Assembly (NCBI RefSeq): GCF_008065095.1
Contig: NZ_CP042911.1
Span: 240,001 to 272,000 of the forward strand
Origin: Gemmata obscuriglobus
Lineage (GTDB): Bacteria > Planctomycetota > Planctomycetia > Gemmatales > Gemmataceae
Length of the DNA: 32,000 nucleotides
Direction: 5' to 3'
Shown here piece by piece: positions 1,618 to 16,483 of the stretch; position 1 is the stretch's first letter; each line of letters begins with the position of its first letter. Under the pieces are notes generated by a model that saw nothing but the letters and a program-made list of their open reading frames with translations, was not told the origin of the DNA and did not search any database. The position numbers and the translations under genes were made by a program.

Positions 1618-2733
1618 CTACGGGGCCAATTCGAGACAGATTACCGCCCCGCTCCCCCGAAGGTACATGCGAGTACCGACAAACGCGGGATGGGCGTAGA
1701 CGCCCTTGTCCGTCCCGCCGAAGGTCGAGAGCCGGCCCAGTTCCGTGTACTCTCGCGCAGCGGCGTCGAAGAGGATCAGGTCACCGGATCGTGAGACGAT
1801 CAGAACACGTGCGTCGGTTGCGACGGCCGCGCAGTAGCCCGAGAACGCGGTCCCGTCCTCGTCGTACACGCCCTTCAAACCGTCCGTCAGACTCAAGCAG
1901 TGGAGCCGGTTCCACACTCCGAACACGTGCGCCCCCGCGACCACCGGCGTGTGTGTGTCCGGAGCCAGCTTCTTGTTCACCGCAACCGGCTTCGGGTCGA
2001 TGATCCCGTCGCCTTTAAACCCGAACAGCCGCGTCCCGTTGTTCTCGGTTGTTACCAGCAGTTTGTCGCCAACGACCAGCGGCGTGGGCACGTTGAAGTC
2101 GCCGCGCCGTTCGGGCTTCACGGTCCACAACCGTTTCCCGCTTTTCGCGTCCCATCCCCCCAGCGTTTCGGCGTCGTGCCCGACGATCTGAAACACGCCG
2201 CCCAACTTCGCCGCGACGAACGACCCGTACCCGGCCAGGGCGCCGGTGACTTTCCAGACGGGCTTCCCGGTTTTCGGGTCGAGCGCCGCCAGAGCCGCGT
2301 CTTTCCCGCCGGGGGCCACGATGAGGTTACCGCCCGCGATCAGCGGCGAGTCGCACACGCCCCACTTCCGCTCGTCCGTCGCGTCGAACTCGTCCCGCAC
2401 GTTCAGCGACCACTTCGCCTTACCGGTTTGCTGTTCCAGGCACGCGAGGTCGCCGAACGCACCCTGGCAGTACACCAAGTCGTTGTGAATGAGGGGTGTG
2501 GCGCGTGGGGAGTTGCCGTAGTCGAGCCGTCCGATGGCGGGCACGCGGTGCGCCCACACCTCTTTCCCGTCCGTGGCCTTGAGGCAGCGGAACACGTCGA
2601 CCGTGTCGTTCAGTTCGCGGTCGGAGACGAGAACGAACTCGGATGTAGCCGCAACACCACCAAGACCGGGAGCGGTGAGAGCCGTTTCCCAAACGGGATC
2701 GGCTTTGGCGGGGAGTTTGTCAGGCAGCCACAC
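1618..2733 (-). CDS. PQQ-like (BamB/YVTN-type) beta-propeller repeat protein
   Basis: This is the 371-aa ORF. It has repeated blade motifs of the type …G.V(Y/F)…DG..(L/V)W. The first possible start is the GTG at 2733, but the frame stays open upstream to 2796 and encodes NPDWTQWRGPNRDG, the usual post-signal-peptide motif of this family. No signal peptide follows the GTG. See the recoding finding. Confidence 0.85.
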   Translation of the reverse strand: MWLPDKLPAKADPVWETALTAPGLGGVAATSEFVLVSDRELNDTVDVFRCLKATDGKEVWAHRVPAIGRLDYGNSPRATPLIHNDLVYCQGAFGDLACLEQQTGKAKWSLNVRDEFDATDERKWGVCDSPLIAGGNLIVAPGGKDAALAALDPKTGKPVWKVTGALAGYGSFVAAKLGGVFQIVGHDAETLGGWDAKSGKRLWTVKPERRGDFNVPTPLVVGDKLLVTTENNGTRLFGFKGDGIIDPKPVAVNKKLAPDTHTPVVAGAHVFGVWNRLHCLSLTDGLKGVYDEDGTAFSGYCAAVATDARVLIVSRSGDLILFDAAAREYTELGRLSTFGGTDKGVYAHPAFVGTRMYLRGSGAVICLELAP

Positions 2734-2786
2734 GAGCCGGCCATCACGGTTCGGCCCGCGCCACTGTGTCCAGTCGGGGTTGCCGG

Positions 2787-3671
2787 CTACTTTTTTTTAG
2801 CCGGCTCGATGAACCCCGCCTTCGTTTCGATGGCGGCGCTGAGGTCCTTGTCCTTGCCGACCGCGAGCAGAGCGGCCCGCACCGTGTCGCGCTCGGCGGC
2901 GGTGAGGCTGCCGGTGGCGAACGCCGCGATGAACGGCACCGGGTCCGTTTCGGCGATGACGCGCAGGGCGCCTTTCTTGATCGTCCCGCACCCCTCGAGC
3001 AGCGGTTGCGCATAGGACGAGATGACGGCCGCAACCTTTTTGCCGGTCTGCGACTCCTCGACCACTTTGGTCGCGCCCTCCGAACACGTGGCGCAGGTGT
3101 CGAGCCGCGCAGGCACCTCCAAACCGAACTCCTTGAGGATCTGCACGGCGGCGGCGCTCTTCTCTTCGGCGGCGGCGTTCCCGAAGTAAACCGTGTACCC
3201 CTTGAGGTCCGCCGGGGTGGTCGCCTTGTCGGCGGCGGCGACGCAAACGAGGCCGGTCTGCGTGGTCTTACCGTCCTTGCCGGTGAGCGCCGCGAGCTGC
3301 GTCACCTCCACCTTGGCGCCCGGCGCCGTCGCGCGGATCACCGAATCCTTGCCGATAATCAGGTGGGCCTTGCCCTCGGACTTTTTCAGCGCCCCGGGCA
3401 GGCTCTCGCCGTACACCACCGCGACCGGGCGGCCGACCTTCCCCTCCAGGTACTTGCCGAATTTGTCGTAGTCGCGCTGGCCGTAGCCGCTGACGCACGG
3501 GCACGACAGGTCCTTGGACAGCGGGTCCATGACCAGCACGACGAGGGCGTTTTCGGGTATCACCACCGGCTTCTCGGCCGGCTTGGGCTTCTCGTCGCCG
3601 AGCGCGGCGGGCAGGACGGTCAGAGCGAGTGCGGTTGCAAGCGCCTCGCGGCGGCTCAGATCGGCGGCCAT
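2787..3671 (-). CDS. Tat-signal PhnD/phosphonate-type periplasmic substrate-binding-like protein
   Basis: In ORF 2787..3740 I trimmed the start to the ATG at 3671 (MAADLSRREALATALALTVLPAALG, a twin-arginine-like signal). The body resembles PhnD-like SBPs (…VMDPLSKDLSCPCVSGYGQRDYDKFGKYLEGKVGRPV…). The longer ORF start would overlap the upstream terminator hairpin. Confidence 0.75.
   Translation of the reverse strand: MAADLSRREALATALALTVLPAALGDEKPKPAEKPVVIPENALVVLVMDPLSKDLSCPCVSGYGQRDYDKFGKYLEGKVGRPVAVVYGESLPGALKKSEGKAHLIIGKDSVIRATAPGAKVEVTQLAALTGKDGKTTQTGLVCVAAADKATTPADLKGYTVYFGNAAAEEKSAAAVQILKEFGLEVPARLDTCATCSEGATKVVEESQTGKKVAAVISSYAQPLLEGCGTIKKGALRVIAETDPVPFIAAFATGSLTAAERDTVRAALLAVGKDKDLSAAIETKAGFIEPAKKK
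2790..2796 (-). other. Candidate -1 recoding site: A_AAA_AAG heptamer within an A8 run, immediately 5' of the TAG stop
   Basis: The minus strand reads GCT AAA AAA AAG TAG in the upstream gene frame. The -1 frame continues AAA GTA GCC GGC AAC CCC GAC TGG ACA CAG TGG CGC GGG CCG AAC CGT GAT GGC, which is the propeller ORF. Confidence 0.4.
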
Positions 3672-3701: not shown

Positions 3702-3734
3702 AAAAAAGCCGCGCGCCCGTTCGGGCGCGCGGGC
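3702..3734 (-). terminator. Rho-independent terminator-like hairpin after the 3744..5003 gene
   Basis: The minus strand reads GCCCGCGCGCCC-GAAC-GGGCGCGCGGC followed by TTTTTTG (plus-strand A6 at 3702-3707). It starts about 10 nt after the TAA at 3744-3746. Confidence 0.6.
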
Positions 3735-3743
3735 CGGCACGAC

Positions 3744-5003
3744 TTACTTCGCCTTCTTTTCCAGGATGTGGAACTTGGAGCCGGGCTGGTCGCAGAAGTA
3801 GATCTTCTGCGCGTCCGGGGACACGGCCACCGCGACGTTCTTGCACCCGCCGGTGAGCTTCACCACGCCGGCGGTCTCGAGGAACTCGCCCGACGGGCTG
3901 AACCGCTTGATGACGCCCTCGCTCTCGGCCGTGTAGATGTCGCCGACGCCGACCGCCCGGATGTTCATCGGGTTGCAGCACCCGCCGAAGCACTTCGGGT
4001 CCGTGTCCTCGCCGCGCTTGCCGAACGAGCCGACCTTTTTGCCCTCGCGGTCGTACCGGGCGAACTGGTGCTTCGTGTTCTCGGCCACCAGCACGTCCGG
4101 GCCGTGGCACTGGATGTCCATCTGCCCGCAGCACCCGCCGATCTCGCTCAGGATCTGCTTGGGGGCCGTGAGGTCCTTGGTGAACCGCCACACCGCGTAC
4201 CCGTACCCCATGTCGCCGCACGCCACGAACACGTCCTTCTCGGACACGGACATGCCGTTGGCCACCCGCAGCCGCCCGGTCATGGCCTCGATCACCTGCT
4301 CGACGGTGCGGCTCTTGTAGTCCGCCTCGATCTTCTCGTACTGCTGGATGAGGTTCTTGAACTGCTCGATCTGCCGCTCCTCGGTCTTGGACCGCTCCTC
4401 CGCCTTCTTGTCCTCGATCCGCTTGAGCTGCTCGGCGATGCTCTTACGGGCGTTGCCGTAGGATTGCGCCATCTGCTCCTTTTCTTTTTTCAACTGCGCT
4501 TCCGCCCGCGTCTTCAGCGCGTCCTTGTCCTTCATCGCGGCGGCCACGTGCGGCAGCTCGGCCGTTTCGCCGAGTTGCTTCCCGGCGGCGTCGAACTTGG
4601 CGATCTTGGCGTCCCCGGCCACGTAGATCGCGTCGTCCGGCCCGCAGTTGACCGCGGTCGCGTGGAACGGGACCTTCCAGTTCGCCACCGGCTTGCCGTC
4701 GGCGCCGAACACGTGGATCTCGGCGGTCGCGCCTTTGGCCGGCGGGCCGTACGGCTTGGGCGGGGCGACCAGGGCGACCACGTGCCCCTTGCCGTCGAGG
4801 CAAATGGTCTGGAGCGTGAGCCCCTTCTCGCCCTTCACGTCGACGGAGGCGACCACCTTGTGCGTGGTCTCGAACTTCTCCGCCGGGTTGGGCGGTGCCA
4901 CGGGCAGGACGGGCACGGCCGGGCGCGCGGCGGGCTTCTCATCGGCGACCGCGAACCCGGCGACCAGCGCCGCCGCGGCGGCGCTCAGGCGGAAGAACCT
5001 CAT
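3744..5003 (-). CDS. Secreted hypothetical protein: beta-propeller-like (NHL/YncE-type) with an internal charged coiled-coil insertion and GGCC vicinal-cysteine motifs
   Basis: In ORF 3744..5108 I trimmed the start to the ATG at 5003 (MRFFRLSAAAAALVAGFAVA signal peptide). The central ~90 aa are K/E/Q-rich heptad-like (…KTRAEAQLKKEKEQMAQ…KKAEERSKTEERQIEQFKNLIQQYEKIEADYK). Repeated motifs are IGGCCGQMD, CFGGCCNPMN and LTGGCKNV. Confidence 0.75.
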   Translation of the reverse strand: MRFFRLSAAAAALVAGFAVADEKPAARPAVPVLPVAPPNPAEKFETTHKVVASVDVKGEKGLTLQTICLDGKGHVVALVAPPKPYGPPAKGATAEIHVFGADGKPVANWKVPFHATAVNCGPDDAIYVAGDAKIAKFDAAGKQLGETAELPHVAAAMKDKDALKTRAEAQLKKEKEQMAQSYGNARKSIAEQLKRIEDKKAEERSKTEERQIEQFKNLIQQYEKIEADYKSRTVEQVIEAMTGRLRVANGMSVSEKDVFVACGDMGYGYAVWRFTKDLTAPKQILSEIGGCCGQMDIQCHGPDVLVAENTKHQFARYDREGKKVGSFGKRGEDTDPKCFGGCCNPMNIRAVGVGDIYTAESEGVIKRFSPSGEFLETAGVVKLTGGCKNVAVAVSPDAQKIYFCDQPGSKFHILEKKAK

Positions 5004-5420: not shown

Positions 5421-6434
5421 ATGGCCCTTACCCGTCGCAGCCTGATGGGACTCTTCGGCCTTGCCGCGCTCCCGCCCCGACTGACCGCCGAACCCAAACG
5501 GTTGTCCGAATCGCCGAGCCCATTTACGACCGCCTTGTGGTTCGCGCACCACTTCGCGGCCCCCGGCGCCCTGACCGCCGGGAACGATCGGCAGCTCAAG
5601 CTCAAGCTGACGGCCGCACTCAACAAATCTCCGGAGCTGCCCTGGGAGGTCGCGAACGAGTTCTTCGACAAGGGCGTGCTGAAGGCTCTCGGTGACGGTG
5701 GCGCGCCGATCTCGGTGGAAAAGATGGGGCACCTGCTCCGGGAGAAGTGCCCGCAGTCTCGAAAAGACATGTTCGTCAAGGCGCGGTTACACGCCGACCT
5801 GCTGACCACGCAGTTCGACATGATCGAGGACGCCCACCAGAAGCGCGCGGAGGAACTCGTCGCCTGGGTGGTCGAGCACTACCGCGCCGGCAAGCCGCTG
5901 GGCGTCATTGCCGTCTGCACGGGGAACACGCGCCGCAGCATGCTCAGCGCGACGATGGGTAACGTCGCCGCCGCCTACTACGGCCTCCCGGACGTCTGCT
6001 TTTACAGCGGCGGCACGGACCCCGACGCCATCAACCCGCGGACGGTCGCCACGCTCAAGGAGATCGGCCTCGAGATCGAGCCGACGGGGAAAGAAGCGAC
6101 CCGCGGAAAGAAGGGGGGCGCGAACCCCGTCTACAGCGTGACGTGGGGCAAGGGACTCGCGACGCGCGAGTTCTCCAAGGTCTATTCCGATCCGCTGAAC
6201 CCGCAGAGCGGGTTCGCCGCTCTTCTCGTTTGCAGCGAGGCCGACACGGCCTGCCCGAAGGTCACCGGCGCCGCGGTCCGCATCCCGCTCCCGTACCTCG
6301 ACCCGAAGTCGTTCGACGGCGCCCCCTTCGAGTCCGCGAAGTATGCCGAGCGCCGCGACGACATCGGGCGGTTCATGCTCAGCGCCATGATGCAGGCCCG
6401 GCGCCGGCTGGAGCGGGACGGCACGCATAAGTAG
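5421..6434 (+). CDS. Tat-signal protein with a C-terminal LMW-PTP/ArsC-type (thioredoxin-coupled arsenate reductase-like) phosphatase domain
   Basis: GGAGG lies 8 nt before the ATG at 5421. MALTRRSLMGLFGLAAL is a Tat-like signal. The CX5R(S) P-loop is VCTGNTRRS. A C-x6-C pair (LVCSEADTACP) sits at the position of the ArsC Cys82/Cys89 pair. About 160 aa at the N-terminus are of unknown type. Confidence 0.8.
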   Translation: MALTRRSLMGLFGLAALPPRLTAEPKRLSESPSPFTTALWFAHHFAAPGALTAGNDRQLKLKLTAALNKSPELPWEVANEFFDKGVLKALGDGGAPISVEKMGHLLREKCPQSRKDMFVKARLHADLLTTQFDMIEDAHQKRAEELVAWVVEHYRAGKPLGVIAVCTGNTRRSMLSATMGNVAAAYYGLPDVCFYSGGTDPDAINPRTVATLKEIGLEIEPTGKEATRGKKGGANPVYSVTWGKGLATREFSKVYSDPLNPQSGFAALLVCSEADTACPKVTGAAVRIPLPYLDPKSFDGAPFESAKYAERRDDIGRFMLSAMMQARRRLERDGTHK

Positions 6435-16397: not shown

Positions 16398-16483
16398 CGC
16401 CCCCCCGGGGTCCCTGGGGGAAAATTGCTGGAGCAAACCCGCGAGTCGTGTTTTAATTCTCCCCCAGGGACCCCGGGGGGGCG
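16398..16483. repeat. Inverted repeat forming a ~24-bp GC-rich stem with a 38-nt loop
   Basis: 16400-16421 (CCCCCCCGGGGTCCCTGGGGGA) is the exact reverse complement of 16460-16481. Two further flanking pairs extend the stem. Confidence 0.85.

Follow-up and report, generated by a model that had tools for sequence, protein, structure and literature searches.

Runs of more than seven A residues are typical of transcriptional realignment (PMC3711429). In the chromosomal, non-mobile dnaX gene of Thermus thermophilus, slippage on an A9 run with stops in both other frames yields the tau and gamma isoforms, which share their N-terminal part, in a G+C-rich host with two tRNA-Lys species (PMC5009743, PMC1088944). 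The tssM1 gene of Citrobacter rodentium carries an out-of-frame A11 run on which slippage restores the C-terminal domain, and tssM3 of Yersinia pseudotuberculosis carries an in-frame A9 run from which slippage gives a short form; the ratio of the forms matters (PMC4256274). In the insertion sequences (IS) of Deinococcus radiodurans and Nostoc, the overlapping orfA and orfB are fused via A runs of 8 to 9-10 nt, A8 being productive in some IS elements and the A8/A9 runs being conserved without insertions or deletions (PMC1088944). The heptamer A_AAA_AAG drives -1 ribosomal frameshifting in Escherichia coli dnaX (PMC5009743), which requires an upstream Shine-Dalgarno-like element and a downstream stem-loop. 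Here, we analyse a 32-kb stretch of the Gemmata obscuriglobus genome (contig NZ_CP042911.1, positions 240,001 to 272,000; 69.4% G+C), hereafter the window, in which a minus-strand open reading frame (ORF) for a PhnD-like binding protein ends at an A8 run and is followed, in the -1 frame and on the same strand, by an ORF for a BamB-like beta-propeller.

We propose that this arrangement very probably reflects programmed recoding that yields two isoforms, and we favour, with distinctly less assurance, RNA-polymerase slippage that would add one A as the mechanism. The locus shares with Thermus dnaX a chromosomal non-mobile gene, a conserved A run of about 9 nt, stops close by in the non-productive frames, predicted isoforms with a common N-terminal part and a G+C-rich host in which AAG probably has a dedicated tRNA (PMC1088944, PMC5009743); in-frame A10 relatives of the Gimesia type have exactly the same layout as the Thermus gene. 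It differs in that the run in the window is out of frame, so that slippage would make the longer product, in that the protein family is unrelated, and in that the case made here is drawn from sequence. As in tssM1 and tssM3, a poly-A run is followed by an early stop between two domains of an envelope protein, and the pairing of a split with an in-frame version is mirrored here. However, the tssM sites occur in few species, whereas the present site is conserved in hundreds of sequence clusters from three or more planctomycete orders, and the stop of tssM1 lies 28 nt after the run rather than immediately behind it. The IS genes likewise have two overlapping ORFs that meet at a conserved A run whose length varies among homologues without insertions or deletions, but they are mobile transposase genes, whereas the present locus is cellular, encodes an envelope protein and is conserved with stable synteny. 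The E. coli dnaX site has the identical in-register heptamer, the same -1 direction and two products per gene; its two stimulatory elements were not found here, its shift gives a shorter product rather than the longer one expected here, and its host reads the site with a single tRNA-Lys.

We found no prior description in the literature of slippage or frameshifting at this locus in Planctomycetes or Gemmata. The 2013 GeneTack survey covered just two genomes from Planctomycetes and contains no cluster of this kind, and neither the phylum nor the PhnD/PQQ_2 domains appear in the first 300,000 characters of the 2016 recoding review. By comparison with the systems above, the locus is an unusually broadly conserved candidate instance of a known recoding class.

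Results

The binding-protein frame ends just after an A8 run

The 3′ end of the binding-protein ORF reads GCT AAA AAA AAG TAG, and its A8 run is the sole homopolymer of at least 8 nt in the window, where about 0.015 A8/T8 runs would be expected from base composition according to our own arithmetic. A reading of this DNA made beforehand from its letters alone (the sequence-only reading) had drawn attention to the run as the only one of its length, to the slippery heptamer, to a propeller in the -1 frame and to the lack of any propeller start before a GTG at 2733; the uniqueness of the run holds in the 32-kb count, and the other details proved correct wherever we checked them. The propeller frame is shut upstream by the TAA at 2799-2797, so no start is possible further upstream. 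After this stop, the frame opens with K K V A G N P (KKVAGNPDWTQWRGPNRDGRL), and neither ATG, GTG, TTG nor CTG occurs between the TAA and the first start-type codon, GTG 2733-2731.

Under standard decoding, the PhnD-like binding protein would end at TAG 2789-2787, right after Lys-Lys-Lys. We propose that, in a fraction of expression events, the frame moves by -1 within the A8 run, whereupon the same signal peptide and binding domain would run on into the propeller, giving a hypothetical 684-aa product with the junction ...EPAKKK-VAGNPDWTQWRGPNRDG.... In the favoured mechanism, RNA polymerase would slip on the T8 template and add one A, turning A8 into A9 in the mRNA, and ordinary translation would then yield the fusion; transcripts with other run lengths would be read in frames that stop soon after the run. 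Ribosomal -1 slippage on the A_AAA_AAG heptamer beside the stop possibly contributes, and the two kinds of slippage may act together, as the protein would be identical either way. One gene would thus supply two exported proteins.

The frame break and the run are conserved together

Homology to the propeller served to fetch 8 loci from genomes and 80 from metagenomes, on which we mapped both domains by tblastn. Both domains were present in 83 sequences (82 fetched loci and the window), and the propeller was offset from the binding protein by -1 in 53 of them (49 distinct), by 0 in 30 and by +1 in none. In every one of the 49 distinct split loci, an A run lies exactly at the break (A8 in 18, A9 in 30 and A10 in 1), down to a propeller identity of 46%. 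The run ends in AAG in the same register as in the window in 42 split loci, it is followed by G in 46 and by C in 3, and in 37 the zero-frame stop comes at once after that single base, with the remainder stopping within 2-13 nt. All three stop codons are used (TAG 25, TAA 17 and TGA 7), and the linker sequences flanking the run are unrelated between split loci outside Gemmata. By comparison, the linkers of the 30 fused metagenome loci are free of runs of A7 or longer, the 429 kb of fetched loci contain a single further A/T run of at least 8 nt, and lysine is encoded elsewhere in these genes by AAG (71%) more often than by AAA (29%).

GTA directly follows the run in 33 of the 49 split loci, compared to a share of 3.4% among valine codons elsewhere, an excess that points to selection for the overlapping stop. 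Moreover, run lengths of 8, 9 and 10 arise by substitution in the preceding codon (GCT, GCA, GGC and others), with no insertion or deletion. All three lengths therefore keep the same frame relation, which rules out a miscounted homopolymer.

The same junction is found in Gemmata algarum JC673 (94% identical), in Gemmata sp. G18 on an 8.3-Mb contig, on a further contig of 10.1 Mb and, with A10, in the Pirellulales isolate Novipirellula artificiosorum. Binding proteins known as single chains carry its signature as well. A protein of equal length from Gemmata sp. JC717, which also ends in AKKK, shares 96% identity with the binding protein of the window, and KKK or KKN forms the C-terminus of 114 of the best 120 stand-alone binding-protein clusters. 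Such an end is seen in 96 of another 120 clusters, a set centred on a distant split locus, and KK is present among the final 8 residues of 116 of them. The taxa of these KKK/KKN-type clusters include Gemmata, Fimbriiglobus, Fuerstiella, Rubripirellula and Novipirellula, the KKK C-terminus of the Rubripirellula obstinata protein being known from the protein alone. Taken together, the alignments and protein ends indicate that the run is kept over at least three planctomycete orders (Gemmatales, Planctomycetales and Pirellulales) and hundreds of sequence clusters.

These orthologues support the recoding proposed in the sequence-only reading, since run, break and adjacent stop recur in the 49 distinct loci and in finished genomes, and they shift its emphasis. 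The heptamer, which that reading had treated as the key feature, does stand in register in 42 of the 49 loci; however, the conserved trait is a run of at least 8 nt and not the heptamer alone.

The start-less N-terminus of the propeller is under protein-coding constraint

In 13 Gemmata-type loci, the 25 propeller-frame codons after the run have 10, 10 and 23 variable sites at codon positions 1, 2 and 3, respectively, and this third-position excess indicates that the segment without a start codon is translated. Across the 83-sequence alignment, R17 is invariant and W9, W12, R13, G14 and D18 are at least 90% conserved, and all of these residues lie upstream of GTG 2733. That GTG is GCG in 12 of 12 relatives. 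Most loci have GTA or CTA immediately behind the run, and a start-type codon often first appears at or beyond codons 32-63 (codon 63 in G. algarum).

The orthologue comparison suggested in the sequence-only reading returned fused orthologues, and none of the orthologues has a conserved start codon or a signal peptide of its own for the propeller. With no conserved start, with coding constraint and the invariant R17 upstream of the first candidate start, and with the segment confidently folded in the structural model, the propeller is predicted not to be an independent gene at all; on this comparison, it cannot be one.

Using the hypothetical 684-aa product as a query, we found hundreds of single-chain proteins of about 640-745 aa that combine PhnD and PQQ_2 domains and match the query over 93-99% of its length at 45-53% identity; their named sources include Pirellulales, Planctomycetaceae and Gimesia. 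Among 5.8 billion proteins, none is a fused protein at least 60% identical to the window fusion. The closest propeller relatives, from Gemmata at 69-80% identity, are all annotated as propeller-only. Some of their annotated N-termini are the C-terminus of the binding protein read in an alternative frame (M..RNEGRVRRAAGQKKVAGNP...), and the others start from an internal codon for Val or Gln. The miscalled 5′ ends (L096 4014-5057; L097 3001-4227; P0001, P0005, P0006, P0009, P0028 and P0103) give proteins of 408-428 aa with alternative-frame starts and of 347-390 aa with internal-codon starts, the latter having lost the conserved WRGPxRDG segment.

Both other frames are closed and some relatives keep the run in frame

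The zero frame is closed within 3 codons of the run in 98% of split loci, compared to 11% at control positions, and the third frame is closed within the same distance in 51%, compared to 6%. Quick closure of both non-fusion frames matters only if several frames are populated, which favours RNA-polymerase slippage.

KKK is present in the linkers of 8 of 107 fused proteins. The seven of these KKK-bearing relatives whose DNA was fetched all have the run at the junction (A10 in six and A8 in one), with stops nearby in the other frames. In the A10 loci (L089, L091, L092 and L093, which are of the Gimesia type, together with L094 and L095), an other-frame stop follows at once or a few codons on; the Gimesia-type sequence is GGT AAA AAA AAA ATA G, whose +1 frame gives KKK and a stop. 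These in-frame, run-bearing loci cluster with the split loci and not with the run-less fusions (85% and 71% bootstrap). A 40-locus clade has 60% bootstrap, which is moderate support for a single origin of the run-bearing state, and we make no claim on the number of origins. By its frame relations, the in-frame A10 layout appears to be the mirror of the arrangement in the window: in such lineages, the fusion would be the default product and the short form would arise by slippage. Retention of the same run in frame in some lineages suggests that selection acts on the proportion of the two isoforms.

No stimulatory element is conserved around the run

We searched the surroundings of the run for the elements that accompany known frameshifting and slippage sites. 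Downstream structure is not conserved over the 49 split loci (mean z of -0.7), and the hairpin or pseudoknot that dnaX-type sites carry 5-9 nt after the heptamer was not found. The consensus fold of 13 Gemmata junctions contains a weak hairpin beginning 22 nt downstream, with a covariation term of +0.5 that gives it no support. Upstream hairpins of the type that promotes slippage on short runs were also absent as a conserved feature (mean z of -0.2), and Shine-Dalgarno-like 4-mers occur upstream in 3 of the 49 loci, compared to 13% of control windows, and are thus not enriched. Scans of the window with Rfam and for tRNAs found nothing.

Several local structures were considered and set aside. 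The pairing of AGCCGGC (2782-2788) with GCCGGCT (2735-2741), pointed out in the sequence-only reading, is present and belongs to the minimum-energy fold, but it is not conserved in relatives. An inverted repeat flanking the run, AGCCGGCT...AGCCGGC, is significant only in the window, L001 and L005, with a mean z of +0.16 over the 49 loci. On the plus strand, a terminator-like match at 2772-2788 followed by T8 is the antisense of the run; such matches occur at chance level (5 found, 3.5 expected), and its flanks are not conserved. Separately, strong hairpins lie about 10-20 nt past the run in some distant split loci (L016, L030/L032, L034, L014 and L044; z of -3 to -4.7) and are not family-wide. 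Those of L030 and L032 have a similar stem with base differences, and that of L044 resembles a small terminator (GCGGGC-TTTTT-GCCCGC).

Weighing the alternatives

The nearest competitor is programmed -1 ribosomal frameshifting as the main mechanism, which we consider unlikely, though much the strongest of the alternatives. Here, the two tRNA-Lys, on AAA in the P site and AAG in the A site, would move back by one base and pair anew, a step favoured by slow termination at the stop next to the heptamer, and translation would resume at GTA GCC in the propeller frame. The always -1 direction of the shift, the in-register A_AAA_AAG in 42 of 49 loci, the G that follows the run in 46, and the stop directly 3′ of the heptamer in 37, with all three stop codons used and at a rate far above that of control positions, are what this mechanism would produce, and the identical heptamer drives frameshifting in E. 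coli dnaX (PMC5009743). Yet A6G would suffice for the ribosome, whereas all runs are A8 or longer; no hairpin or pseudoknot is conserved at any spacing and no Shine-Dalgarno-like element lies upstream; six loci have the run in another register; and about 14% of the binding-protein clusters end in KKN, whose AAC or AAT is a poorer A-site codon in bacteria. Moreover, AAG is the prevailing lysine codon of these genes, and the tRNA-Lys(CUU) that is usual in G+C-rich bacteria would presumably hold it tightly, as has been argued for Thermus (PMC5009743). Ribosomal frameshifting alone would also leave unexplained the fast closure of the third frame and the conserved in-frame A10 relatives. Transcriptional slippage is favoured because the run is always at least 8 nt long, because downstream structure and Shine-Dalgarno-like enrichment are lacking, because run-bearing relatives exist in frame and because of the KKN ends. 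The sequence-only reading had offered both kinds of slippage, and the other-frame stops and in-frame A10 relatives make the transcriptional kind the likelier.

The remaining alternatives dispense with recoding, and each accounts for part of the data. Poly-A tracts are slippery for DNA polymerase too (PMC3711429), and out-of-frame and in-frame run-bearing genes occur in related lineages, so the frame has flipped during evolution; a contingency locus, whose tract length changes at replication and turns the propeller ON or OFF in subpopulations, could be imagined on these grounds. We regard it as very improbable, as the OFF state is shared by every Gemmata-type locus and by about 114 Gemmata-type protein clusters and the ON state by all five loci of the Gimesia type, no close fused relative of the window product was found in the protein search described above, near-identical contigs from different samples are in the same state (L009/L010, L017/L026, L034/L035 and L036/L037), and the differences in run length among loci are frame-keeping substitutions. 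Slightly less credible again is a pair of ordinary genes, in which the propeller, possibly cytoplasmic, would be translated on its own from a downstream or non-canonical start (GTG 2733, for example), through coupling or re-initiation. Gene callers do annotate two genes, and the relative L004 has a GTG overlapping its TGA stop; however, no start is conserved, GTG 2733 is unique to the window, and the start-less N-terminal segment is conserved as protein, with its invariant R17, and is folded in the model. The product would also lack a signal peptide, whereas fused orthologues undergo export as a single chain and the fold relatives are extracytoplasmic, and the conserved A8-10 run would be needless. 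Finally, the locus could be an ordinary fusion gene with a miscount in sequencing or assembly, or with a recent inactivating mutation that leaves a pseudogene; an assembly error or recent mutation had been raised in the sequence-only reading. Insertion and deletion errors classically arise at homopolymers, and fusions in frame are frequent elsewhere in Planctomycetes. We give this alternative practically no credence: the comparative data already refute it, as the same break is conserved in 52 distinct loci from isolates, metagenome-assembled genomes and metagenomes of many projects, A8, A9 and A10 all hold the same frame, the zero-frame stop is kept via three stop codons with the rare GTA codon, and purifying selection acts on both domains down to 46% identity.

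Several points weigh against programmed recoding by RNA-polymerase slippage and temper our preference for it. The metagenome loci were picked with Gemmata-type propeller motifs, which biases the sample toward that clade, and the loci are phylogenetically related, so that the counts overstate the number of independent events. The whole case rests on comparative sequence. Of the run lengths on which RNA polymerase slips productively, the A8 of the window is among the shortest, and the window keeps its third frame open for about 15-17 codons past the run. The in-register heptamer, the G after the run and the immediate stop, a 'shifty stop', at the frequencies given above would also fit selection for ribosomal slippage. 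To our knowledge, no planctomycete RNA polymerase has ever been assayed for slippage.

Domains, fold and export

The first ORF matches PF12974 (Phosphonate-bd) with an E-value of 9e-19 and 68.2 bits, compared to a cutoff of 27, and the second matches PF13360 (PQQ_2) with an E-value of 9e-28 and 97.9 bits, compared to a cutoff of 27.6. The binding protein does not reach the threshold of the TIGR01098 subfamily (20.9 bits, with 112 needed), and phosphonate specificity is therefore not implied. A search of the PDB with its sequence gave no match. Likewise, the propeller falls below the BamB equivalog models and is thus not BamB itself. Its AlphaFold model has a predicted local distance difference test (pLDDT) score of 94.9 overall and of 97 for residues 11-20, and the closest PDB folds are BamB chains at the top, at a TM score of about 0.7, together with other extracytoplasmic propellers. 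The two domains thus share their folds (PF13360 and PF12974) with BamB and other PQQ_2 propellers and with PhnD-type binding proteins; they differ in that the propeller has only 14-17% sequence identity to BamB and no lipobox, and in that the binding-protein gene has no adjoining ABC transporter genes (no permease, ATPase or other transporter gene was found next to it). Function cannot be transferred from BamB or PhnD-type proteins to this pair, and the binding domain may not be a transport binding protein at all. Cysteine motifs in the binding protein (CPC near the N-terminus, C..C and EGCG) also occur in distant fused homologues and in the 83-sequence consensus.

The signal peptide of the binding protein is the sole export signal available to the propeller. 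The sequence-only reading had assigned it to the twin-arginine translocation (Tat) pathway. Its SRREAL twin-arginine motif and hydrophobic stretch are indeed visible, and the RR motif is kept in Gemmata-type relatives, but Tat-signal profiles gave no match to the N-terminus and the assignment is unproven; Tat export of the Gemmata-type binding protein is plausible from the motif. It is not general across the family, because the binding proteins of Pirellulales relatives have Sec-like signals.

Gene neighbourhood

In 65 fetched loci, both split and fused, a homologue of the NHL-like gene is the immediate upstream neighbour of the binding-protein gene. Its protein of about 419 aa has a coiled-coil segment and repeated blades containing GGCC/GGC, with weak matches to NHL/ScyF and SGL profiles. 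A strong terminator-like hairpin lies between the two genes, and for this reason they may not be simply co-transcribed. The features are collected in Table 1.

Table 1. Features of the putatively recoded locus and its upstream partner, in window coordinates
Feature	Position	Strand	Details
BamB-like eight-bladed (PQQ_2) beta-propeller coding region, -1 frame	1618..2790	-	390 codons + TAG
Propeller-frame codons without a start codon	2734..2790	-	19 codons (VAGNPDWTQWRGPNRDGRL)
First stop of the third frame, TGA	2744..2746	-	would be met upon loss of one A
PhnD-like binding-protein ORF, zero frame	2787..3671	-	294 aa + TAG; ATG 3671-3669, TAG 2789-2787; from translation and PF12974
Zero-frame stop TAG	2787..2789	-	directly 3′ of the heptamer
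A_AAA_AAG heptamer	2790..2796	-	zero-frame register
A8 run (T8 on the plus strand)	2791..2798	-	proposed slippage site
TAA in the propeller (-1) frame	2797..2799	-	upstream closure of the propeller frame
N-terminal signal peptide of the binding protein	3597..3671	-	MAADLSRREALATALALTVLPAALG; from reading of the sequence
Terminator-like GC hairpin + T6, between partner and binding-protein genes	3709..3732	-	10 GC pairs, loop GAAC, tail CTTTTTTGTT
Upstream partner gene, exported NHL/SGL-like Cys-rich protein	3744..5003	-	probable ATG at 5003; PF08450 SGL (faint)

On the plus strand, an ORF at 5421-6434 contains the CTGNTRRS motif of low-molecular-weight phosphatases of the ArsC type, and an LMWPc homologue stands beside the cassette in Gemmata sp. 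G18 too. In that genome (L096 5371-6693), the cassette is followed by a second PQQ_2-type propeller of 440 aa, which has no equivalent immediately downstream in the window. The window also contains four G7/C7 runs (1362-1368, 1503-1509, 16400-16406 and 16475-16481), the first two of which flank the region just downstream of the propeller gene.

Implications

For annotation, the consequence is that the propeller is annotated in public Planctomycetes genomes either with a false N-terminus from another frame or from a start that cuts it short, and the predicted 684-aa exported fusion is missed. Two-isoform slippage genes of bacteria form a short list, to which this locus would add a deeply conserved cellular gene.

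More tentatively, and at somewhat less than even chances, we suggest that the poly-A tract is an ancient, selected 'ratio dial' present in at least three orders, which has been flipped between out-of-frame and in-frame settings, and that an exported complex with the NHL-like partner would require both isoforms in fixed proportion. Were this true, it would be among the most widely conserved cases of transcriptional slippage in cellular, non-mobile bacterial genes besides dnaX, and the first recoding event for the phylum beyond the universal ones. The out-of-frame, in-frame-with-run and run-less fused versions within one family amount to a natural experiment on how isoform ratios evolve, and the same family may show when transcriptional and when ribosomal slippage is used in G+C-rich bacteria. 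The apparent need for both isoforms would also offer a way to probe the function of this widespread cassette of binding protein, propeller and NHL-like partner.

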